DNA from: Minisyncoccia bacterium
GTDB lineage: Bacteria; Patescibacteriota; Minisyncoccia; Phycocordibacterales; UBA9973
DNA length: 64,000 bases
Direction of reading: 5' to 3'
NCBI GenBank assembly: GCA_049303835.1
Contig: JBAQNN010000003.1
Span: 11,933-75,932, forward strand
Shown: positions 10,885 to 55,365 of the stretch, piece after piece
Numbering within the stretch: position 1 is the first letter of the stretch
How the letters are laid out: every line of letters begins with the position of its first letter
The notes under the pieces: generated by a model
Seen by the model: the letters and a program-made list of their open reading frames with translations, nothing else
Databases searched by the model: none
What the model was told of the DNA's origin: nothing
Program-made: the position numbers and the translations under genes

Positions 10885-10942
10885 TGCGTTGGGCCAGTCG
10901 CACGATTTGGGCCCATAATCACCTCCTAACGAAGAACAGTTG

Positions 10943-11404
10943 TTACAGGTTCACCTTTCTATAAACCTGCACCCGCACATGCGGGTTTTTTTTATCCGGG
11001 GAGTCAAAGAATGTCTCCCCGGATCGCATTTGCGATGGAGCGCGGAAGTCTCCCTCCCCGGGGTAGGAGACTGAGTCTCTAACCCCTGAAAAGGTTATCC
11101 GTAGCGGGCGCCCCTCCGTCCGAATCTTGAAACTCCACGCAATCTGCGTGCTGCATGGAGTGTAGCACTCGTGCATGAGCACAAGCGCCTCGGTCGGTTG
11201 ATGGTAGTAGGTTGACGTCGGTTTGTTGTCCGGCGGCTTCGTCTCTTCCTCTTCTTTCTCACTCCACCAGGAAGAGACTGCGGATGTTCCGAGCTTTACC
11301 CCAGAGTAGATAAGGAAGCCGGTGAAGAGAAAAACTACCGTTACGATAGGGTAAAAGAGAAACCGAGCAGATTTGAAGCGGCGCATGGGCTTACCCCTTA
11401 TCAC
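10943..11404 (-). CDS. hypothetical membrane protein, operon partner of the SPFH gene (high-GC island)
   Basis: 153-aa ORF with N-terminal TM helix, overlaps the SPFH stop by 14 nt; GC about 57%; no recognisable NfeD motif; coding status uncertain. Confidence 0.3.
   Translation of the reverse strand: MIRGKPMRRFKSARFLFYPIVTVVFLFTGFLIYSGVKLGTSAVSSWWSEKEEEETKPPDNKPTSTYYHQPTEALVLMHECYTPCSTQIAWSFKIRTEGRPLRITFSGVRDSVSYPGEGDFRAPSQMRSGETFFDSPDKKNPHVRVQVYRKVNL
10970..10993 (+). terminator. rho-independent terminator (hairpin plus T8), second of a tandem pair
   Basis: cccgc-acat-gcggg followed by tttttttt; overlaps the predicted C-terminus of the minus-strand ORF 10943..11404. Confidence 0.55.
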
Positions 11405-12416
11405 TGACGGCCGTTACGATGCCACCACCAATGACATTTGGTTTGGCAACCTTAATCGCCTCCGCCATCGCGATAGCCGCGCCGTTTGGCTGAGATGCCC
11501 AAGCAGCGAGTTCCGCTCTGATCCCTTCCGCTCTTTCCTTGGAGGCGTTTTTCTCGCCAATGCCACGTTCCTTGGCAGCTTCGGCATCGAGCTTGGCGAT
11601 TGCAACCGCTTTTGTTGCTCGCGCTTCTTCTCCCTCGACGAGGTCAAAAGAGACGAAACGCGCATCGACGATTTCGACACCGAACTTGTTGTAGAGACTC
11701 TCAGAGTTTGTCCGATCCCCTAGAGCCTTGAGTGTCTCGACAAGCGGGCTTGCCTTTGAGCCCTTCTGCTCCAACCGAAGTTCATCGACATCACGAGACG
11801 CTGCGTATTGCCGAAACGCTCCAGCAACTGCCGCGGTGGTCTGGCCTTCCCAGCCACCAGCGAAGAAGAATGCCTTCTGCGGGTTGACGACTTGTGCTGT
11901 GAATACGAGTATGGCGTCGACGGTGAGGTTGCCAGCGGTCTCCGCTGACTCTATACCAACTGCCATGTTGTAACGGAAGAAGATGGAGGGTCCAGGACGA
12001 GTCTTCGGGACGAGACCCCACTCACCAGTGGGTTTCTTGTCCTTCTCGATCATCTCCCACTTGTCATACTTCACCTCGCGGTAAAGCAGATAGCGGAAGA
12101 ATCCGACCCGGGCGACACCTAGGTTGTATAGGTATCCTTCTCCCTCTCCCTTTTTCTCTCCATCGGGGAGAGATTCGAACTCGCCGTTTTTGTAGTTGTA
12201 GAGAGAGACCGATTCCAGAACGTCTGCGAATGGTCCTTTGGGATCACCGCGGACGACGATGTACATCTCTCCGGGAGGGGGGAGGGTCCGAAACGGACTC
12301 CACCATGTATCCTTTTTCCCGAGCGTTACGATTCCTCTCGGAATGAGGAACTCCACGGTGAAGATGATTAGTCCTACTGTCAAGATTGTGAAGAGGACGA
12401 TCCATACTATGTTCAT
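11391..12416 (-). CDS. SPFH / band-7 (stomatin-prohibitin-flotillin) domain protein, in a high-GC island
   Basis: N-terminal TM, VDAILVFTAQVVNPQKA SPFH core, Ala/Glu-rich C-terminal coiled coil; G/C-rich codon usage unlike neighbours. Confidence 0.75.
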   Translation of the reverse strand: MNIVWIVLFTILTVGLIIFTVEFLIPRGIVTLGKKDTWWSPFRTLPPPGEMYIVVRGDPKGPFADVLESVSLYNYKNGEFESLPDGEKKGEGEGYLYNLGVARVGFFRYLLYREVKYDKWEMIEKDKKPTGEWGLVPKTRPGPSIFFRYNMAVGIESAETAGNLTVDAILVFTAQVVNPQKAFFFAGGWEGQTTAAVAGAFRQYAASRDVDELRLEQKGSKASPLVETLKALGDRTNSESLYNKFGVEIVDARFVSFDLVEGEEARATKAVAIAKLDAEAAKERGIGEKNASKERAEGIRAELAAWASQPNGAAIAMAEAIKVAKPNVIGGGIVTAVSDKG

Positions 12417-12623
12417 ACTTCCTCCTGCGCCGGTGGCGCTGTGTTAAGCGCCCGCGGGCGCGGGTTTTGGAAAGGGAATAAGGTCGTAAAATCCTTTCGG
12501 ATTATTTTGTTTTCAGAGGGCTAGAGACTACTAAAATAGTATCACAAAATATCAAAAAAGTCAATCCCAAACGAAAGCCTTCGGCTTCGTACGGGACAGG
12601 CCTCTTTAGCATTGCGTAAACAA

Positions 12624-13476: not shown

Positions 13477-13558
13477 GCCCGAGTGGCGGAACTGGTATAC
13501 GCGCACGACTTAAAATCGTGTCTCGCAAGGGATGTGGGTTCGATTCCCACCTCGGGCA
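13477..13558 (+). tRNA. tRNA-Leu(TAA), type II with long variable arm
   Basis: acceptor gcccgag/ctcgggc, anticodon loop acTTAAaa, T-loop GGTTCGATTCC; no encoded CCA. Confidence 0.8.
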
Positions 13559-13588
13559 CTGGGTAGAATTGTTTTTTAAAATTTATTT

Positions 13589-13661
13589 GCGCCCATAACT
13601 CAGCTGGTAGAGTAGCTCCCTCTTAAGGAGAATGTCGGAGGTTCGATCCCTCCTGGGCGCA
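13589..13661 (+). tRNA. tRNA-Lys(CTT)
   Basis: 73-nt cloverleaf, acceptor gcgccca/tgggcgc, anticodon loop ctCTTaa, T-loop GGTTCGATCC. Confidence 0.75.
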
Positions 13662-13696
13662 CAGTGCGAAATTATAAAGCACTAATTGTTTCTTGT

Positions 13697-13778
13697 GGGC
13701 GAGTGGCGGAATTGGTATACGCGTTAGTCTTAGGAACTAATGTCGCAAGACTTGAGGGTTCGAGTCCCTCCTCGCCCA
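13697..13778 (+). tRNA. tRNA-Leu(TAG), type II
   Basis: acceptor gggcgag/ctcgccc, anticodon loop ctTAGga, long variable arm, T-loop GGTTCGAGTCC. Confidence 0.8.
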
Positions 13779-13785
13779 CACGTAC

Positions 13786-13857
13786 GGCCTGGTAGCCAAG
13801 TGGTAAGGCATTCCTCTGCAAAAGGAATATGCGGCGGTTCAATTCCGCCCCAGGCCT
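13786..13857 (+). tRNA. tRNA-Cys(GCA)
   Basis: acceptor ggcctgg/ccaggcc, anticodon loop ctGCAaa, T-loop GGTTCAATTCC. Confidence 0.8.
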
Positions 13858-20776: not shown

Positions 20777-20862
20777 GCGTCGGTGGTAGAGTGGTCAATT
20801 ACAACAGACTGTAAATCTGTCGCCTTCGGGCTACGAAGGTTCGAATCCTTCCCGACGCACCA
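20777..20862 (+). tRNA. tRNA-Tyr(GTA), type II, with encoded 3-prime CCA
   Basis: acceptor gcgtcgg/ccgacgc, anticodon loop ctGTAaa, variable arm, T-loop GGTTCGAATCC, then acca. Confidence 0.75.
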
Positions 20863-47224: not shown

Positions 47225-48589
47225 CTAAATTCTATTAATCTTTTGTCCTTCTCCAGTATCTTTCACTTCATACCCAAGAGCGTTTATTTTATCTCGCAAC
47301 TCATCGGATTTTTTGAAATCTTTATTTTGGCGCGCTTCTTCACGTTCGTCTTTTAGTTTTAAAATTTCTGCGGGAATTATTTCTTCTTTAAGATTTTCAA
47401 AGCCGAGTCCTAATACTTTATCAAAGTCCAAAATGGTGGCTTTTTTGTCGGCATCAGACATATTTTCGTCTTTGACGACATCCCAAAGAAGGGAAAGGGC
47501 TCGGGGGGTGTCTAAGTCATCTTCTATGTATTCTTTGAACTTATTTTGGTATTCCTGGTGTACTTGCCCAACCTCGTTTCCTAGCCCCAAATATAGCCCA
47601 TAAAGGCGTTTTAAGGCTGTTTCTGCTCCTTCTAGGGCGTCCCATACAAAGTTTATTCTGGTGCGGTAATTAGCCATTAAAAGCCAAAACCTATAAGCAA
47701 CTGGGTTGATTCCTTTTTCGGCCAAATCTCTCAAGGTGTAAAAATTGTTGGAAGATTTTGCCATCTTTTTTTGATCCACCAGGACCCACTCATTGTGCAT
47801 CCAATACTTTACAAATGGTTTTCCTGTAGCTCCTTCAGATTGGGCTATCTCGTTTTCGTGGTGTGGAAAAATATTATCTACTCCACCCGTGTGCAGGTCT
47901 ATCTCTTCTCCTAAATTTTTCATGGACATGGCTGAACATTCTATGTGCCAACCGGGACGACCTTTGCCCAGGCTTGTTTCCCAGGAAACAACTCCGTCTT
48001 TTTCATCCCAAGCTTTCCAGAGTGCGAAATCTTGTGCGTTATCTTTCTCGTACTCATCTGTTTTAATTCTACCCGAAGCATTTTCTTTTTGTTCTTCTAA
48101 AATAAGATGTGAAAGTTTCCCATAATTTTTGAATTTTTTAATATCAAAGTAAACTGACCCATCCGCGCTTTTATAGGCTAGTCCTTTATCTAAAAGTTTA
48201 TTTATAATATCTACCATCTCGTCCACATAGTCGGTCGCCTTGGTAAATTTTGTGGGTTCCAAGATGTTGAGAGATTTTATGTCTTTTAAAAATTCTGTCG
48301 TATAAAATTCCGTAAATTCTTTAAGTGTTTTGCCTTCCTTTTGCGAATCGCGAATAGTTTTGTCATCTATATCGGTGATATTCATTATATGTTTTACTTT
48401 ATACCCGCAATATAACAAAACACGTTTCAAAGTATCAGCGAATATGTAAGCTCGGTAATTTCCTATGTGCGGGTAGTTATATACAGTCGGTCCGCAGGAA
48501 TAAAAACCGACATTAGGTGGGTTGATTGGAGTAAAAGTTTCTTTCTCCCGGGTGAGGGTATTATAAAATTTGATTTTGCTTGAATTCAT
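47225..48589 (-). CDS. cysS: cysteinyl-tRNA synthetase
   Basis: HIGN (YSCGPTVYNYPHIGN) and KMAKS class I motifs; Zn-binding Cys. Confidence 0.9.
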   Translation of the reverse strand: MNSSKIKFYNTLTREKETFTPINPPNVGFYSCGPTVYNYPHIGNYRAYIFADTLKRVLLYCGYKVKHIMNITDIDDKTIRDSQKEGKTLKEFTEFYTTEFLKDIKSLNILEPTKFTKATDYVDEMVDIINKLLDKGLAYKSADGSVYFDIKKFKNYGKLSHLILEEQKENASGRIKTDEYEKDNAQDFALWKAWDEKDGVVSWETSLGKGRPGWHIECSAMSMKNLGEEIDLHTGGVDNIFPHHENEIAQSEGATGKPFVKYWMHNEWVLVDQKKMAKSSNNFYTLRDLAEKGINPVAYRFWLLMANYRTRINFVWDALEGAETALKRLYGLYLGLGNEVGQVHQEYQNKFKEYIEDDLDTPRALSLLWDVVKDENMSDADKKATILDFDKVLGLGFENLKEEIIPAEILKLKDEREEARQNKDFKKSDELRDKINALGYEVKDTGEGQKINRI

Positions 48590-49586
48590 TTCTGTATATT
48601 GAAATTAATGTATAGAGCAAACTGATCGTGAGCGGTCCCATCAAAATACCTACCGGGCCCAACAGAGAAATGCCTCCTAGGACGGAAAACAAGATTAAAA
48701 GTGGCGGGATATTTGTTTTTCCACCGACCACCAATGGAGTCAAGAAATTATCAATTGTTCCCACTACGATGACAGCCCAAATCAAAAGTCCGATAGCCGA
48801 GGTAATATTTCCTGTCACAAAAAGGAAAATAATAGACGGAACCGATACGAAAGCGGTGCCGAAAGTCGGAATCAGAGAACAAATGGCGGCCACCACACCC
48901 CAGAGAGCAGGATTGGGAACATTAAAGAACCAAAGTCCAAAACCCATCAAAATACCTTGCACTAAAGCGATAAACAGAGATCCTTTTACTACGCTATTTA
49001 CTGCCAAAGTCAATCTTGAAATGATTTTTTCATCATCCTTATCGGCAAGGGGGGATAGGATTACTACAGCTTTCCTCCACCTCTCTCCATCTTTTAAGAA
49101 ATAAAAGATAATAAAAAGCAACAACACAAAAGAAAAGAAAGCCGAGACAACGGTACTGAATACATTTGCCACGTTACTTGAAATGTAGGAGATAAAACTA
49201 GAAATTTTTTCATCTATGTCAAAAGTTACTCCAGAAGGTAAAAACTTATTTACAGTGTTTTCTATGGAATCCATAAATGGTCCGGCGTTGCCCGCGTTAT
49301 TTAAAACAGAAAGGTAGGCATCTTGACTTTGATTAAAAACAATAACTCCAATAGCCAAAATTGGACCACAAAGCACTATAGTAAAGAGTATTATGGTGAT
49401 AACAGCAGATAACCAACTAGGGAGGCGCTTTTTATTTAACCATATGTATATTGGGTAAAGTACTATGGAAAAAGAAGCTCCTAATACGAGCACGACCCAA
49501 AAAGGCTGAAAAATAAAAAAAGTGAAAACGAAGGTTAGAAATAAAAGCCCAAAGAAAAAATACTTTTCTATAGTTTTTGATTGCAT
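48561..49586 (-). CDS. AI-2E family transporter (PerM/UPF0118)
   Basis: 8-TM profile and conserved C-terminal GPLTISLLY-like segment. Confidence 0.7.
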   Translation of the reverse strand: MQSKTIEKYFFFGLLFLTFVFTFFIFQPFWVVLVLGASFSIVLYPIYIWLNKKRLPSWLSAVITIILFTIVLCGPILAIGVIVFNQSQDAYLSVLNNAGNAGPFMDSIENTVNKFLPSGVTFDIDEKISSFISYISSNVANVFSTVVSAFFSFVLLLFIIFYFLKDGERWRKAVVILSPLADKDDEKIISRLTLAVNSVVKGSLFIALVQGILMGFGLWFFNVPNPALWGVVAAICSLIPTFGTAFVSVPSIIFLFVTGNITSAIGLLIWAVIVVGTIDNFLTPLVVGGKTNIPPLLILFSVLGGISLLGPVGILMGPLTISLLYTLISIYRNEFKQNQIL

Positions 49587-49644
49587 ATGGGTTTATTATA
49601 GCTTATCCTTGCTTTTTTGTGAAATTTCATATAATATAGGATTT

Positions 49645-49971
49645 ATGGAATTTGCAGTTATACAAACAGGTGGAAAGCAATATAAAGTCTCCCAAGGGAG
49701 CCTTGTTTCTATTGAGAAAATAAAGACCACCGGTGTTGAATATAAAAAAGGGGATAAGCTCGTTTTTGACAAAGTCTTACTCGTAGATGACGGAAAAGAT
49801 ACGACTATCGGCACACCATATATAAAAGGTGCAAAAGTTGATGGGGAAATCGTAGAAATTGGCCGTTCCCGAAAAGTTATGGTTGTAAAATATAAACAAA
49901 AATCTCGTTACTTAAAAAGAAACGGTCACCGCCAACCATTCTTCAAAATAAAAATAACTTCTATAAAATAA
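49645..49971 (+). CDS. rplU: 50S ribosomal protein L21
   Basis: ATG at 49645 (the track ORF is over-extended); MEFAVIQTGGKQYKV...KYKQKSRYLKRNGHRQ. Confidence 0.85.
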   Translation: MEFAVIQTGGKQYKVSQGSLVSIEKIKTTGVEYKKGDKLVFDKVLLVDDGKDTTIGTPYIKGAKVDGEIVEIGRSRKVMVVKYKQKSRYLKRNGHRQPFFKIKITSIK

Positions 49972-50000
49972 AAAAACCACTCATCTGAGTGGTTTTTTTA
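49971..50000. terminator. bidirectional rho-independent terminator between rplU and recR
   Basis: aaaaaa-ccactca-tctg-agtggtt-ttttt. Confidence 0.7.
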
Positions 50001-50615
50001 TTGCCTATTTTTGAGAGCGTTTTTGAGAGTGTCGTTGTCGGAATATTCTAGCTCTGTGCCGGTGGAGAGACCCTTGCCTAAGGAAGAGATTTTTATTTCT
50101 AATTTTTCTGTGATGTCTTTTAATTGTTCACGTACATATTGGTCTGTATGATCACCTTGGGGGCTGATAGAAAAGGCGAGGATTATCTCTTGTAGATTAT
50201 TTTCTTTTTCTTTCTTAATTTTTTCTTGCAGTTCAGAAATACGCACTCGGCTCTTGGTAGTTTTCTCAACGATAGGCACCAGTCCGCCCAGAATAAAATA
50301 TTTTCCATGATAAACTCCGCTCTTTTTGATACTTTCCAGATCAGAATCTTTTTCTACTATCATCAGGGTAGAAGAATCAATACTCGGGTTGGCACAGAGT
50401 TCGCACAGTTTTTCTTTTTTTGAATTTAAAATAAAAAACCTAAAGCATTCTTTGCATTGGGTCACTTCTTTTTTTAGTTCCAAAACAAGTTCAGAAAGAT
50501 TCTGTGCATAGGAAGGATTTCTGGCCATCAAAAAATAAACAAAACGCTTGGCTTGGCGTTCTCCAATGCCGGGAAATTCTTTAAATATTTCAGTTAACTT
50601 GTCTATAATATCCAT
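49998..50615 (-). CDS. recR: recombination protein RecR
   Basis: HhH, C4 zinc finger CKECFRF...CELC, Toprim domain. Confidence 0.9.
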   Translation of the reverse strand: MDIIDKLTEIFKEFPGIGERQAKRFVYFLMARNPSYAQNLSELVLELKKEVTQCKECFRFFILNSKKEKLCELCANPSIDSSTLMIVEKDSDLESIKKSGVYHGKYFILGGLVPIVEKTTKSRVRISELQEKIKKEKENNLQEIILAFSISPQGDHTDQYVREQLKDITEKLEIKISSLGKGLSTGTELEYSDNDTLKNALKNRQ

Positions 50616-50617
50616 AT

Positions 50618-52024
50618 TTAAAATTCATCCAATTCTCCACCCATTTTTGATGGTGCAAATTCACTGATATTACTCTTTTCCAGATTTAGGAAAGTGGTGG
50701 TTTTTTCATCAAAGTAAAGTTCTACTTTTCCAACAGGACCATTACGATGTTTTTCTACCAAAATTTCGGCTATATTTGTTCTTTCTGATTCATCCTTACC
50801 TTTATCTTCGCGATGAATAAACATCACTACATCCGCGTCTTGCTCAATAGAGCCGGAATCGCGAAGGTCAGAGAGACGGGGTTTGCCTCCACGAGATTCT
50901 ACCGCGCGAGAAAGTTGGGACAAGGCAAGCACCGGCACGTCCAATTCTTTAGCCAAACTCTTCAAAGATCTACTGATTTCGGTGACTTGGTTGACCATGG
51001 AGTCGTAATTTTTGGAGGTGGTCATCAATTGTAAATAGTCCACCACGATAAGGTCTAAACTTTTTTCTGCTTTTATTCTGCGAGACAAGGCTTTCATACG
51101 AACAATAGAATTTCCTGGCGTGTCGTCAATAAATATTTTTGCTTTTGCGAGTTTACCCAACGAATCCCGAAGCAAGGAGAATTCTCTATCGGAGGAAAGG
51201 TTCCCTGTGCGTAAATTCCAAGCATTGACCCGAGACTCTGCCGAGAGCATTCTATCCACGAGTTGCTGGGAGGACATTTCCAAAGAAAATATTAAAATAG
51301 ATTTTTCATGTAAGACTCCGGCCATACGTGCAATATCCAAAGCGAGGGTAGTTTTACCCATACTTGGTCTAGCTGCTAAAATCACTAAATCAGATTTTTG
51401 TAAACCAGAAAGCATCGTATCCAAATCTCTAAACCCCGTCGGTAGCCCACGGAGCATTCCTTTATTCTCGTGCAGTTTTTCCAAACGTTCATATGCCTCA
51501 GGCAAGGCGTCTTTCAAATTTACAAATTTTTGATTTTTAGGGGAAGAAACCACGCTAAAAATTTTCTTCTCCGCCATATCCAAAATATCATCCATATGGT
51601 CATCGCCTTCTTCAAAAGCAAGTTCGGAAACATAATCCGCTGCTTCAATCAGACTTCGCAAGACATATTTTTTTTGTACTATATCAGCATAGTGCTTGAT
51701 GTTGGCAGAAGAGGGAACTACGTTTACAATTTCAGCCAAATATTGATTCCCCCCTACTGCTTCAAGAACTTTTTGCTCACTCAATTTAGTGGAAAGAGAG
51801 AGCATGTCTATCGGTTCATTTTTGACCGAGAGGTCTAGCATTGCTTGAAAAATTTTCTTATTTTTTTCAACATAAAAAGAATCAGGGGTGATCATGTCCT
51901 CAACCTCATGCATGGCGTCTTTGCGGAGCATTATTGAGCCTAAAACTGCTTGTTCGGAGGGGATACTTTGTGGAGGAATACGCAGGTTACTATTCTTCGG
52001 ATTATTTTTTCCATTTTTTATCAT
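50618..52024 (-). CDS. dnaB: replicative DNA helicase DnaB
   Basis: Walker A ARPSMGKTTLALD, RecA-like C-domain, N-terminal DnaB domain. Confidence 0.9.
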   Translation of the reverse strand: MIKNGKNNPKNSNLRIPPQSIPSEQAVLGSIMLRKDAMHEVEDMITPDSFYVEKNKKIFQAMLDLSVKNEPIDMLSLSTKLSEQKVLEAVGGNQYLAEIVNVVPSSANIKHYADIVQKKYVLRSLIEAADYVSELAFEEGDDHMDDILDMAEKKIFSVVSSPKNQKFVNLKDALPEAYERLEKLHENKGMLRGLPTGFRDLDTMLSGLQKSDLVILAARPSMGKTTLALDIARMAGVLHEKSILIFSLEMSSQQLVDRMLSAESRVNAWNLRTGNLSSDREFSLLRDSLGKLAKAKIFIDDTPGNSIVRMKALSRRIKAEKSLDLIVVDYLQLMTTSKNYDSMVNQVTEISRSLKSLAKELDVPVLALSQLSRAVESRGGKPRLSDLRDSGSIEQDADVVMFIHREDKGKDESERTNIAEILVEKHRNGPVGKVELYFDEKTTTFLNLEKSNISEFAPSKMGGELDEF

Positions 52025-52115
52025 GAGGCCATTCTAGCACGATAGAAAAATTGTCCAAGCGCAAAAGTGGGTTAAGGTGTTACTAAAATGTGGACAAGTA
52101 TGATAATATAAAAGT

Positions 52116-53087
52116 ATGTCAAAAAAGGTATTTTCCAAAGTGTTTCTTTCGGGTGTTCAGCCTTCAGGTAGGCCACATATTGGCAATTATTTTGGGGCAA
52201 TGAAGCAGTTTGTGGATTTGCAGAATGAACACGACGGATATGTTTTTATTGCAGATTATCATGCCATGCACTCTCTTAGAAATCCAAAAGAGATGAACGA
52301 AAATATCAAGAGCGTTTTGTTGGACTATTTAGCTATCGGACTAGACCCAAAAAAAGTGACTTTTTTTAAACAAAGTGATATCTCCGAGCACACCGAACTC
52401 GCTTGGATTTTTGATACCATTACCACCATGCCATTTTTGATGCGCGCACACGCTTTTAAAGATGCGCAGGTGAAAAATAAAGAAATAGATGTCGGTACGT
52501 TTAACTATCCGGTTTTAATGGCAGCTGATATTTTGATGTATGGTCCAGACATGATTCCCGTCGGAGCGGATCAAAAACAACATGTGGAAATCGCTCGCGA
52601 CATAGCGGAGAAATTTAATAATGTTTATGGCAATGGAGTTGAGATTTTTAAGTTGCCGGAGCCGATGATCTTGAAAGATGTGGCAATAGTACCCGGCACG
52701 GACGGTAGAAAGATGAGTAAGAGCTATGATAATACCATTCCACTTTTTGCAGAATATGAAGAGATAAAAAAATGTGTGATGAGTATAGTGACGGACTCTA
52801 GTGGGGGAATACCACAGAATGTCTATGCTATTCATAAACTTTTCCGCAACGAAGATGAATTGAAGAAAATTTACGAAGAGAAATCGGGTAAGTATAAAGA
52901 ATTGAAAGAAATGCTCGCGGAAGATATAGAAAAGTTTATTGCACCACTACGCGAAAAGAGAAAAGAATTTGAAAAAGATATCCCTAAAGCATTAGCCATC
53001 CTGAAAGCTGGAGGTGAAAAAGCAAAAAGGATTGCAGAAGTAAAAATGGAAGAAGTTCGGGAGAAGATAGGGGTGAATGTTTATTAA
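52116..53087 (+). CDS. trpS: tryptophanyl-tRNA synthetase
   Basis: SGVQPSGRPHIGNYFG (HIGH) and KMSKS. Confidence 0.9.
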   Translation: MSKKVFSKVFLSGVQPSGRPHIGNYFGAMKQFVDLQNEHDGYVFIADYHAMHSLRNPKEMNENIKSVLLDYLAIGLDPKKVTFFKQSDISEHTELAWIFDTITTMPFLMRAHAFKDAQVKNKEIDVGTFNYPVLMAADILMYGPDMIPVGADQKQHVEIARDIAEKFNNVYGNGVEIFKLPEPMILKDVAIVPGTDGRKMSKSYDNTIPLFAEYEEIKKCVMSIVTDSSGGIPQNVYAIHKLFRNEDELKKIYEEKSGKYKELKEMLAEDIEKFIAPLREKRKEFEKDIPKALAILKAGGEKAKRIAEVKMEEVREKIGVNVY

Positions 53088-53240
53088 ATCTATTGCTTTT
53101 TTAAAAATTATAGGTTATATTATACACGTGAATAAAAATACACAGCAAAATAATCACATTAAGTTTTTCTTCTTTACCCCCAACCTTAGAGGGCTGATAT
53201 TTGTGCTGTAAAAATACTCAAACGAAACTTACAACTCAAA

Positions 53241-53270
53241 TACCAACCTTCCAAGGTTGGTATTTGTTCT
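53241..53270 (+). terminator. hairpin terminator (taccaacc-ttccaa-ggttggta plus T-rich tail) immediately upstream of the GC-rich islet
   Basis: perfect 8-9 bp stem then tttgttcttt. Confidence 0.5.
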
Positions 53271-53282
53271 TTAGGAGGAAGT

Positions 53283-53576
53283 ATGAACAAGAAGTCGTTG
53301 CACGAGTGGTATCCCGGGGCGGTGAAGTCCGGCAGGACCCATCTGACGGTCCCCAAGAACACTCTCGGTCTGTCGTGTGGGTGCAAGAGGGGTGAGGAAG
53401 ACCCCGAGTTTGAAATCCACTGTGTCCCGGGTTTGCCATGGGTTCACTGTGGTCCGAAGGGGTGCTGGAAGTCTCTCGATCTTCCAGTGCTCCCGTATCT
53501 CAAGCCCAAGGCAGGCAAAGAGCTGCCTTACAACTACCCCCGGCACGCTCCGCACTTCGTTCGGACTTCCTGTTAG
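53283..53576 (+). CDS. hypothetical small cysteine/histidine-rich protein (97 aa) in a high-GC islet; coding status tentative
   Basis: strong SD AGGAGG 4-5 nt before ATG (unusual here); GC3 well above GC1/2; flanked by terminators; pattern C-x-C...HC...HC-x3-GC. Confidence 0.3.
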   Translation: MNKKSLHEWYPGAVKSGRTHLTVPKNTLGLSCGCKRGEEDPEFEIHCVPGLPWVHCGPKGCWKSLDLPVLPYLKPKAGKELPYNYPRHAPHFVRTSC

Positions 53577-53607
53577 TTTCTCACGCGCTCGGCGTAATTC
53601 GAGCAAC

Positions 53608-53651
53608 TGGCGACTGTGTTCCCTTGGATGGGAGCCGGTCGCCATTTTTTT
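53608..53651 (+). terminator. strong rho-independent terminator closing the GC-rich islet
   Basis: tggcgac...gtcgcca long hairpin followed by ttttttt. Confidence 0.65.
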
Positions 53652-53673
53652 ATATTTATGCTAAAATATTTTT

Positions 53674-55023
53674 ATGAAAAATCGTATTTATATTAAAGAT
53701 TTAAAGGATCATATTGGTAAAGAAGTCATCGTCGCTGGGTGGGTGGATGTCAGGCGTGACCAGGGTAAAATGGTATTTTTTGATATGCGGGATATGACAG
53801 GCAAAGTTCAAGCAGTGGCTTTGCCAAATCACGCAGAAGTCATAGAAAAAGCGAAAGAAATCAGACTTGAATGGGCACTTAAAGTTAGTGGTTTGGTAAA
53901 CAAGCGACCCGAAAGAAACATTAAGGCTGGAGTATTAAACGGAGATATTGAATTGGAAATTTTAAATGTAGAAATCTTAGGTGAAGCCCTTCCGTTACCG
54001 TTTGATATGTCCCTTGAAGGATATAATCTTGACTTGACTACAGAACTGGATAATCGGGCTTTGGTCTTAAGACAGCCGAAAGTGCAGGCAGTTTTTAAAG
54101 TGCAAGAAACAGTCATTGATTCCTTCAGGGAATTTATGAAGAAAAATATGTTTTTTGAATTTCAGGCCCCAGCCATTACTCCTGCCACGGCAGAAGGAGG
54201 GGCGGAAGTTTTTAAGGTTGATTATTTTGACAAGAAAGCATACCTAACCCAATCGCCCCAGCTTTACAAGCAGATAGTAATGTCTGCTTTTGAGAGGTGT
54301 TTTTCCGTAAATAAAGTTTTTAGGGCCGAACCATCATCCACCACCAGACACCTGACGGAAATAGTTTCTTTGGATGCCGAGATGGGATTTATTGATTCAT
54401 GGATGGACGTACGTGATATGGCAGAAGAGACAGTCAGATTTATTTTAAAACAAGTGGAGGTGAAAAATCCCGAGCATTTAAAAATTTTAAACGCGACGTT
54501 GCCGGTGATGATAGATAAAACTCCGACTCTTTCATTGCGCGAGGTTCAACAGAAAATTTTTGAAAAGTTTGGCCGGGATGTTCGTGGAGAAAAAGACACG
54601 AATCCGGAAGATGAAAGGCAAATTTGTGAAATTATCAAAGAAGAAACCGGGTCAGATTTTGTGTTCATTTACGGATATCCAACTCGCAAGAAACCTTTTT
54701 ATGTTTATCCAAACCCAGAAGAGCCGGAATATAATGAGGGCATGGATCTTCTCTGTAGGGGGGTAGAATGGCTCTCTGGAGGACGAAGAGTCAACGATTA
54801 CAAACAACTTACAGAACACGTAGAACTTTGGAAAATGGATCCAGAAAAAGTAAAAATGTTTCTGGAAGCGTTCAAATACGGAGTTCCACCTGAAGGAGGA
54901 TTTGCCCTCGGAGCTGAACGAATTACGATGCAACTTTTGGAACTGAAAAATATTCGCGAAGCTTCAATGTTTCCTAGAGACATGAATAGAATAGACGAGA
55001 GATTAAATAGTGACGGATTTTAA
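53674..55023 (+). CDS. aspS: aspartyl-tRNA synthetase, compact type-2 (archaeal/non-discriminating-like) form
   Basis: N-terminal OB anticodon-binding domain, class II motifs; 449 aa; cannot exclude AsnRS from sequence alone. Confidence 0.75.
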   Translation: MKNRIYIKDLKDHIGKEVIVAGWVDVRRDQGKMVFFDMRDMTGKVQAVALPNHAEVIEKAKEIRLEWALKVSGLVNKRPERNIKAGVLNGDIELEILNVEILGEALPLPFDMSLEGYNLDLTTELDNRALVLRQPKVQAVFKVQETVIDSFREFMKKNMFFEFQAPAITPATAEGGAEVFKVDYFDKKAYLTQSPQLYKQIVMSAFERCFSVNKVFRAEPSSTTRHLTEIVSLDAEMGFIDSWMDVRDMAEETVRFILKQVEVKNPEHLKILNATLPVMIDKTPTLSLREVQQKIFEKFGRDVRGEKDTNPEDERQICEIIKEETGSDFVFIYGYPTRKKPFYVYPNPEEPEYNEGMDLLCRGVEWLSGGRRVNDYKQLTEHVELWKMDPEKVKMFLEAFKYGVPPEGGFALGAERITMQLLELKNIREASMFPRDMNRIDERLNSDGF

Positions 55024-55035
55024 AGGAAGAATTTT

Positions 55036-55365
55036 ATGGATTTATCGAATAAAAAATGTATACCATGCGAGGCGGGTGGGGTGGACCCATTTAGTGAAGC
55101 GCAAGCCGAAGAATATTTGAAAGAGGTAAGCGGTTGGGTGCTTGATGAAAAAGCGCAAAAAATTTGGAAAGAATTTAAGTTTCAAGATTTTTTAGAAGCC
55201 ATAAAATTCGTTAATTTGGTGGCAGGAATTGCGGAGGGTGAGGGACATCATCCGGATATTCACATTTATTACAATAAAGTTACCTTAGAACTCTCTACGC
55301 ATGCGATTGGTGGGCTTTCTCTAAATGATTTTATCCTAGCGGCTAAAATAGACGAACAAAATTAA
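55036..55365 (+). CDS. pterin-4a-carbinolamine dehydratase (PCD/DCoH)
   Basis: EGHHPDI...Y...L.TH motif. Confidence 0.8.
   Translation: MDLSNKKCIPCEAGGVDPFSEAQAEEYLKEVSGWVLDEKAQKIWKEFKFQDFLEAIKFVNLVAGIAEGEGHHPDIHIYYNKVTLELSTHAIGGLSLNDFILAAKIDEQN

Follow-up and report, generated by a model that had tools for sequence, protein, structure and literature searches.

A conserved small-protein gene behind a probable leader-peptide attenuator in a Minisyncoccia genome

Attenuation of transcription by leader peptides is a textbook mechanism in free-living bacteria, where it governs amino-acid biosynthetic operons, the familiar cases being trpL, pheL/pheM, hisL, thrL and leuL of E. coli, with Trp_leader and Phe_leader (RF01859) as families in Rfam. 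Another described group comprises regulatory nascent or arrest peptides, such as TnaC and the ErmCL and CatA86 leaders, which act at or near their own stop codons. The present analysis concerns a 64-kb stretch of DNA, referred to as the window, from a Minisyncoccia genome of the Candidate Phyla Radiation (CPR). Between trpS and aspS, a GC-rich islet in this window belongs to a self-contained transcription unit of ~560 bp (53093-53651; features in Table 1) that carries a 97-codon open reading frame (ORF), here called X. The best overall explanation of the data is probably that X is a gene placed behind a leader-peptide transcription attenuator. An attenuator-like leader was unexpected in a reduced CPR bacterium, and no earlier description of attenuators or small zinc proteins in CPR was found in the literature, subscription journals not being covered.

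As in the classical attenuators, the leader of X contains a short upstream ORF (uORF) with tandem codons for one amino acid, antiterminator and terminator hairpins that exclude each other, a uORF stop placed where a terminating ribosome would mask the antiterminator strand, and a U-tail directly before the gene. It differs from them in its CPR host, in a uORF that is apparently leaderless or near-leaderless and starts with GTG, in a C-terminal LIF(A/V)L-stop that overlaps a conserved RNA box, in the reuse of one scaffold with different tandem codons (Phe, Tyr, Trp or Cys), and in its genes, which encode small Cys/His proteins and not biosynthetic or charging enzymes. Against Rfam Phe_leader it scored 17.6 bits where the gathering threshold is 55 (E = 3.2), and no curated leader or riboswitch family reached threshold in 53100-53720. 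Like TnaC and the ErmCL and CatA86 leaders, the uORF is short with a conserved C-terminus, and by analogy the position of the ribosome may decide the fate of a downstream terminator or Shine-Dalgarno (SD) sequence; unlike in those leaders, the conservation of LIFAL may reflect the RNA box, which is out of frame in one copy (L006_2). T-box leaders upstream of aminoacyl-tRNA synthetase genes share with it a terminator and a synthetase neighbourhood (trpS-X-aspS here, pheST-X at the related locus L006), whereas this leader has no T-box match in Rfam, precedes and would regulate X, and carries tandem uORF codons instead of a specifier loop. A T-box or an aspS leader was rejected, since Rfam gave no match and X's own terminator separates the leader from aspS.

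X is a real protein-coding gene, a point on which hardly any doubt is left, and it is under strong purifying selection. Only two strong GC islets stand out in the window, which has 38.6% GC overall, and one of them is 53251-53650; GC content in 200-nt windows reaches 0.57-0.60 at 53300-53599 and falls to 0.32-0.43 on both sides, confirming the islet reported in a first-pass annotation made from the sequence alone. GC content at the three codon positions (GC1/GC2/GC3) is 0.55/0.47/0.72 in X, as compared with 0.49/0.28/0.38 in trpS and 0.52/0.32/0.36 in aspS. The first-pass annotation had taken the high GC3 as a sign of coding, and the comparative data point the same way. A protein search recovered four full-length homologues at 65-96% identity, and among homologues differences at third codon positions are ~2.5 times those at positions 1 and 2 (18/18/45, for example), gaps are of 3 nt and in frame, and similarity begins at the SD and ATG and stops at the X stop codon even where the flanks are unrelated. 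The ratio of nonsynonymous to synonymous divergence (dN/dS, Nei-Gojobori) was 0.06-0.21 across all 15 pairs, which gives no support to a decaying fragment, the alternative named in the first-pass annotation. Frame +1 is the sole frame without stops in all nine homologues, the antisense frame being broken in five of them. Within the window, stops are absent from frames +1 and -1 only, the other four having 1-4 each, so that the statement that every frame is open was not borne out; the description of a near-perfect SD unlike those of most genes here was correct, a perfect AGGAGG being present in only 2 of the 47 genes of the window. Just over half of these genes (24/47) match that sequence at just two of six positions 3-12 nt upstream, which suggests that much initiation in the source genome is SD-independent.

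The first-pass annotation had left room for a structured non-coding RNA, in which case the ORF would be an accident of GC-richness. Three observations could be read in that way: the whole region folds on the + strand with z = -6.1, both the sense and the antisense frame lack stops in the window, and an antisense ORF was picked by one gene caller at L001. The fold score is largely owing to the two terminator hairpins. For the coding sequence (CDS) of X alone, dinucleotide shuffles gave z = -2.9 and synonymous-codon shuffles, which keep protein and codon usage, gave -1.7; with the latter, four homologues gave -1.7, -0.7, -0.5 and +0.8, and the excess structure of the CDS is therefore not conserved. 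The Rfam scan proposed earlier returned nothing at or above the gathering threshold in the islet and, over the whole window at gathering thresholds, only tRNAs elsewhere; at E <= 10 over 53100-53720 it yielded only junk (MIR1888, sau-41 and Phe_leader at 17.6 bits). Readings as RNase P, signal recognition particle RNA or transfer-messenger RNA were rejected for want of Rfam support, and the partial similarities to the first two that had been reported are attributable to chance. Given also the codon-periodic divergence, the low dN/dS and the interruption of the antisense frame in five of nine homologues, the non-coding reading is effectively refuted.

Upstream of X, alignment revealed a strongly conserved AT-rich sequence of ~155 nt. 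Eleven copies of this leader, belonging to seven types, precede homologues of X and other small Cys-rich ORFs, and share one order of elements. TTGC(T/A)T is followed after 16-17 nt by TAnAnT and after a further 6-12 nt by a GTG or ATG start; next comes a uORF of 20-28 codons, the stop of which falls within the box CUGAU(A/U)UUUG(C/U)GCUG-UAA; after a spacer follow the box UUACAACUCAAA, a hairpin with a type-specific stem and a U-rich tail (UUUUGUUCUUU in most copies), and finally, in most copies, a GGAGG SD and the ORF. The promoter layout recurs in L002, L005, L009, L004A, L004B, L006_1, L006_2 and L008 despite diverged intervening sequence, and the uORF starts 6-12 nt past the -10-like hexamer in the nine copies for which upstream sequence is available. 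The start directly past the -10 box and the missing SD imply that the uORF is leaderless or nearly so, in line with the weak SD usage of the genome.

The same boxes and layout are found at distant loci, twice each in L006 and L004 and once in L010, while L008 has a similar layout with a divergent box. At L009 the block from promoter to terminator lies between a membrane-protein gene and a gene read as rpsN, not between trpS and aspS. The architecture stands upstream of X homologues in L006, L008 and L010, upstream of a three-gene string Z, X, Y in L004, and before ORFs unrelated to X that encode a 51-aa helical protein (L004) and a 106-aa Cys/Trp-rich protein (L006). A profile search with the close alignment found relatives at one genome locus, L006, which holds a distant X homologue in a metagenome-assembled genome (MAG) of Candidatus Saccharibacteria, and at one metagenome locus, L009. 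A covariance model built on seven copies (R1) recovered L006_1, on which it had not been trained, at E = 6e-10; neither this model nor a pattern search detected a second leader copy in the 64-kb window. Since MAFFT misaligned L004A and L008, the leaders that diverge most, these two were folded individually.

In the minimum free energy fold of the window leader, 53180-53211 pairs with 53229-53260 in a long hairpin, which makes this structure mutually exclusive with the terminator at 53237-53266. When the 3′ arm of the terminator was withheld, each of the ten copies folded showed pairing of the 5′ arm with the strand that holds the final codons of the uORF, stop included. The antiterminator complementarity exceeded that of shuffles in 8/8 copies tested (z from -2.3 to -4.6), and 97% of cells were paired in alignment A9, versus 37-53% with the partner slid. 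The terminator stem varies in sequence by leader type with its pairing kept, and four of its pairs have changed on both sides, a number reached in none of 500 shuffles, all four coming from one sequence. The partner strand of the antiterminator varies along with the terminator by type (AGAGGGCU/AGCCCUCU, UUUGCGCU/AGCGCAAA, UAGAAGGCU/AGCCUUCUA and GGAGCUA/UUGGCUC). The 5′ part of the window leader, the candidate position of a 1:2 pause hairpin, showed only a weak 4-bp helix that is not obviously conserved. Overall, it is very likely that a terminator/antiterminator switch exists.

The first-pass annotation had described the islet as flanked by terminators. This holds for the downstream terminator, which is nearly invariant in L002, L005, L009 and L004; the upstream hairpin is not a mere flank and reads as the attenuator of X's own leader. 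As 150 nt separate it from the trpS stop and 16 nt from the X ATG, it is not simply the trpS terminator. Being the only terminator-like element after trpS, it does double as the trpS terminator, and a reading in which it served that purpose alone, with X an ordinary constitutive small gene, would rest on this fact. We consider that reading very improbable, in view of the position of the hairpin, of the leaders and hairpins that precede X or other small ORFs in the absence of trpS (L009, L004, L006, L008 and L010), and of the competing antiterminator present in every copy folded.

The uORF is found in 11/11 leader copies, with 24-28 codons in ten and at least 20 in all; among close relatives it is free of indels, which begin right past its stop. 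That stop lies within box 1 on the 5′ strand of the antiterminator in 10/11 copies, and in L006_2 a UGA is placed at the start of the box. The peptides (Table 1) carry FFFF in the clade of the window and FF, YY, WW or CC elsewhere, such that a tandem pair of Phe, Tyr, Trp or Cys occurs 7-16 codons before the stop in all six distinct types tested. Given the composition of each uORF, the chance of the observed run is p < 5e-5 for FFFF, 0.006 for WW and 0.012 for CC, and the joint chance of some such pair in six of six types is ~7e-6, with the caveat that this set of residues was chosen after the data had been seen. From this architecture it seems reasonably likely that the switch is operated by translation of the uORF, that is, by leader-peptide attenuation; Phe-tRNA is a possible signal for the window copy, at somewhat under even odds.

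In such a mechanism, transcription would start at or beside the GUG of the 27-codon uORF. With ample Phe-tRNA, a ribosome would reach the uORF stop (53209-53211), inside the 5′ strand of the antiterminator, and would keep that strand unpaired, allowing the terminator (53237-53266 and U-tail) to form and transcription to end 10 nt before X. A ribosome stalled at the four Phe codons (53164-53175) would leave the strand 53189-53211 free to capture the 5′ arm of the terminator; RNA polymerase would then read through, and the strongly SD-led X would be translated when Phe-tRNA is short.

Several points weigh against attenuation by the uORF. The leader evidence comes from 11 copies, most of them on short metagenome contigs. 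The -35 element fits the E. coli consensus at only three of six positions, for which reason a scan with that consensus is silent at 53093-53121, and the uORF has a GTG start without an SD. Apart from FFFF and the C-terminal LIF(A/V)L, substitutions in the uORF among close relatives are mostly non-synonymous. The uORF of L006_2 ends 9 nt earlier and the box there is not read as LIFAL; being out of the uORF frame, this box is conserved at the RNA level. Sequence conservation marks the antiterminator, which shows no double-sided covariation in the alignable set (A9), and the table of cross-type duplexes is not cleanly diagonal. X is not an enzyme of a Phe pathway, unlike the genes under classical attenuators, its homologues stand behind FFFF, FF or YY leaders, so that the amino-acid specificity is not uniform, and neither X nor its companion ORFs have a Pfam or NCBIfam assignment or a recognisable link to the amino acid sensed. 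Hints of such a link are circumstantial and limited to two: in L006, pheST immediately precedes X, and in the window the second gene downstream encodes a pterin-4a-carbinolamine dehydratase (PCD).

The main rival to uORF attenuation is a switch operated by a protein or ligand on the same two hairpins, in which a trans-acting factor would bind the boxes CUGAUAUUUGCGCUGUAAAA and UUACAACUCAAA and the short open frame would be incidental; X itself, as a basic zinc-finger protein that regulates its own gene, would be one candidate. Such a switch would account for boxes that are conserved as sequence and not as pairing only, for a box outside the uORF frame in L006_2, and for a uORF that lacks an SD and changes freely at residues besides FFFF and LIFAL, and X is indeed basic (pI 9.1). 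It leaves unexplained the constant length of the uORF (24-28 codons in 10/11), its start fixed just past the -10 box, its stop always on the antiterminator strand and the improbable tandem Phe, Tyr, Trp or Cys codons in every type. Rfam gave no riboswitch match, and the presence of the same leader before ORFs unrelated to X counts against autoregulation specific to X. We therefore regard a trans-acting factor as unlikely and retain control by uORF translation as the preferred reading.

The X family is rare, an exhaustive profile search of 1.84 billion proteins having returned 36 representatives, mostly of 85-130 aa. In a 37-member alignment W9, C32, W53 and H55 are invariant and P24, L30, G33, R36 and F43 nearly so; position 34 is Cys or His, and position 61 is usually Cys. 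X itself (97 aa, pI 9.1, with just two Phe residues) consists of an N-terminal domain of ~65 residues containing W9, C32, C34, R36, F43, W53, H55 and C61, a Pro/Lys-rich linker and a C-terminal HFVRTSC; many other members likewise end in (Y/F)(F/L)(V/A)(R/K) after a variable, basic, Pro/Lys-rich linker. An AlphaFold2 model based on the family alignment has one helix and three short strands, with a mean predicted local distance difference test score of 77, scores of 75-89 over residues 1-70 and a tail of low confidence. Pfam, NCBIfam, PHROGs and PADLOC gave nothing meaningful for the 37 members, a sequence-profile search of the PDB gave no significant match (E >= 0.8), no fold match was found, and the 64-kb window holds no paralogue. 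X thus belongs to an undescribed small-protein family with no entry in Pfam, NCBIfam or PDB.

The first-pass annotation had suggested either a Cys/His-rich metal-binding mini-protein or the precursor of a modified peptide. The former is plausible from conservation: X probably binds a metal, and a single structural ion, presumably zinc, is most likely coordinated by C32, C/H34, H55 and C61. The basic tail is variable but closes with a conserved aromatic-basic motif, which probably docks onto a partner. In its motif L-x-C-x-C...F-x-I...W-x-H, X recalls the first half of PHD or treble-clef zinc fingers such as the BPTF PHD finger (PDB 2fui/2ri7), and its C,C and H,C could equal ligand pairs 1 and 3, forming one zinc site of the cross-brace. 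The profile-to-PDB match has E = 1.6 only, however, pairs 2 and 4 are missing from X, and a C4HC3 finger needs eight ligands for two zinc ions whereas X has four conserved ligand positions and no structural match, so that the resemblance is a lead only. A ribosomally synthesised and post-translationally modified peptide (RiPP) precursor would also be small and Cys-rich with a Cys at its C-terminus, as X is. The neighbours are housekeeping genes, there is no maturase, protease or exporter within ±8 kb or at related loci, and conservation centres on a stretch of ~65 residues that is predicted to fold as a domain and is followed by a variable C-terminus, with no signal or leader motif and no leader/core layout; a RiPP precursor is accordingly a highly improbable reading, and X is better described as a small, putatively metal-binding protein. 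Repeated similarity to the middle of the X profile (~residues 41-76) was seen in two large proteins, with 10 matching stretches in P0005 (588 aa) and 8 in P0023 (3107 aa); P0005 is made of tandem ~50-aa repeats containing HC..E..ID...DLPFLYCSHDGCG.

The codon usage of X is atypical for its genome, with a value resembling the codon adaptation index (CAI-like) of 0.53 against 0.73 ± 0.02 (z = -8.3). GC3 is 0.57-0.72 in all six alleles of the window clade despite saturated synonymous sites, the distant members L007, L008 and L010 are not enriched in GC3, and GC2 is raised in most members for which DNA is at hand because of their amino-acid composition. Divergence of the CDS and of its flanks is discordant in both directions. 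Between the window and L002, dS is 1.31 in aspS and the leaders are 83% identical, yet dS in X is 0.20; between L005 and L009, leader and trailer are 98% and 94% identical, yet dS in X is 1.2. This discordance suggests exchange of coding cassettes between lineages or unusual constraints, and could also be caused by chimeric assembly of short metagenome contigs across the repeated leader or terminator.

A horizontally exchanged cassette of foreign, higher-GC origin that moves among CPR lineages would be compatible with attenuation; GC-richness and atypical codons would then reflect origin, not function. The distance of X from host codon usage, the discordant divergence, the different neighbours that the block has in L009 and its differing arrangement in L004, and a 16-nt SD and start context identical to that of the other GC islet are all in keeping with such an origin. 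Relatives of X were absent from the phages and plasmids searched by tblastn and from the viral contigs, phage and defence libraries contained no homologue, and the window contains no integrase, transposase or flanking repeats. The GC3 kept at saturated synonymous sites argues for maintenance and not recent import, distant members lack the enrichment, the leader is AT-rich like the host, and the short metagenome contigs may be chimeras formed where a leader or terminator is repeated. A foreign cassette is on balance a doubtful explanation, although by no means a negligible one. The first GC islet of the window (10926-12500) contains two ORFs on the - strand, 11391..12416 and 10943..11404, for membrane-anchored proteins of 341 and 153 aa without a Pfam match. 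Their codon usage is atypical in the manner of X (CAI-like 0.54-0.56, GC3 0.60-0.64), the 341-aa ORF has exactly the 16-nt start context of X, AGGAGGAAGTATGAAC, and X and this 341-aa ORF have the only perfect AGGAGG SDs among the 47 genes. No leader motif was detected at the first GC islet.

Two tandem units with a leader were seen at L004 (190-1600). Leader A, with a tandem-Trp uORF, precedes the 51-aa helical ORF (weak TPR_2 match, E = 7e-4), which resembles an N-terminal extension fused to the X domain in protein P0021. Leader B, with FFFF, precedes Z (72 aa, C..HEC..CxxC), X and then Y (51 aa), which has the motif FKCDYCK..YRDANLL and a weak match to the TnpB/Cas12f zinc ribbon PF07282 (E = 0.057). 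The Y insertion is flanked by a 10-nt repeat, CTCGG(T/C)GTAT, and a half copy of the small 3′ untranslated region (3′-UTR) hairpin stands before it and a full copy after it; upstream of the units there appears, as read by eye, to be the end of a TrpR/YerC-like gene. At L006 (6040-6535), the second leader (uORF MNINRRTISIVCCSASNLEG, tandem Cys) precedes the GC-richer 106-aa Cys/Trp-rich ORF, which has no Pfam match; this unit lies directly downstream of the X homologue, itself directly after pheS-pheT.

In the window, X is surrounded by cysS, an AI-2E transporter gene, recR, dnaB, trpS, aspS, the PCD gene, an M17 aminopeptidase gene and scpAB. DnaB, TrpRS and AspRS (52116-55023) correspond to MFZ3011763, MFZ3011764 and MFZ3011765 in a Minisyncoccia (Patescibacteria/CPR) MAG; as these accessions are consecutive, the deposited annotation seems to lack any protein from the interval separating trpS and aspS, which would leave X unannotated there. 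The region 47225-55365 is a translation-related cluster with cysS (- strand), trpS and aspS, the last annotated as aspartate--tRNA(Asn) ligase, and is closed by the PCD gene (55036-55365), which encodes an enzyme linked to aromatic amino-acid hydroxylation. The promoter-like site for aspS marks the right edge of the conserved block and is conserved in relatives; in L009 similarity ends directly after it. The tRNAs that are the sole Rfam matches in the window form a four-gene cluster at 13477-13857, with one more at 20777-20859.

Table 1. Features of the X transcription unit (coordinates in the window) and predicted uORF peptides of the leader copies.
Feature	Coordinates	Strand	Details
Putative promoter	53093..53121	+	TTGCTT 53093-53098, 17-nt spacer, TATATT 53116-53121; ends 6 nt before uORF start
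Leader uORF	53128..53211	+	GTG start, 27 codons and TAA, MNKNTQQNNHIKFFFFTPNLRGLIFVL; four tandem Phe codons 53164-53175
Probable antiterminator	53180..53260	+	5′ strand 53180-53211 (box 1 CTGATATTTGTGCTGTAA, uORF stop); 3′ strand 53229-53260
Antiterminator 3′ strand	53229-53260	+	contains box 2 TTACAACTCAAA and terminator 5′ arm
Probable attenuator terminator	53237..53272	+	13-bp hairpin CAAAUACCAACCU/AGGUUGGUAUUUG, 4-nt loop, 53237-53266; UUCUUU tail
Shine-Dalgarno AGGAGG	53273..53278	+	4 nt before X ATG
CDS of X	53283..53576	+	97 aa; codon-periodic divergence, in-frame indels
Small 3′-UTR hairpin	53587..53604	+	GCUCGG-CGUAAU-UCGAGC
Intrinsic terminator of X unit	53609..53651	+	GGCGAC...GUCGCC hairpin 53609-53643, A, T7 at 53645-53651
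Promoter-like site for aspS	53639..53667	+	TCGCCA, 17 nt, TG-n-TAAAAT; right edge of conserved block
uORF peptide, window clade			MNKNTQQNNHIKFFFFTPNLRGLIFVL
uORF peptide, L004A			MMILRYVGIKINKETWWSVNEDAFALFC
uORF peptide, L004B			window-clade type, two residues different (...FFFFTCNLRGLIFAL)
uORF peptide, L006_1			MNKLGAQQYFFSICPLCTSTRSLIFAL
uORF peptide, L006_2			MNINRRTISIVCCSASNLEG
uORF peptide, L008			MKGFKSIKINSFFCITFIKKELSIFV
uORF peptide, L010			MFKTAGNFNNYYTAYISRTLIFAL

The recurrence of one leader design with FF, YY, WW or CC in related genomes points to a group of small proteins whose expression would rise when particular aminoacyl-tRNAs are short. As a tentative extension, which we consider less likely than not, CPR bacteria, unable to make amino acids, may possess scattered genes that form a regulon and encode small metal-binding proteins; these genes would be GC-rich, use rare codons and have a strong SD, each being switched on by a modular leaderless attenuator whose tandem Phe, Tyr, Trp or Cys codons name the aminoacyl-tRNA shortage sensed, with cassettes exchanged between lineages independently of the leaders. 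If this were true, it would represent a previously unseen system of starvation sensing and response in ultra-small symbiotic bacteria. Two features raise an evolutionary question of their own, that of selection on synonymous sites or cassette exchange: the CDS has stayed GC-rich with rare codons, and its divergence is uncoupled from that of the flanks. X in any case adds a conserved small-protein family to CPR genomes, in which a large share of genes is still unexplained. Cells that rely on a host for their amino acids would here have turned the logic known from biosynthetic operons into a movable module, whose sensed codons can be swapped and which stands before genes for small proteins that are not enzymes, and attenuation in CPR would show how such cells sense nutrient supply.

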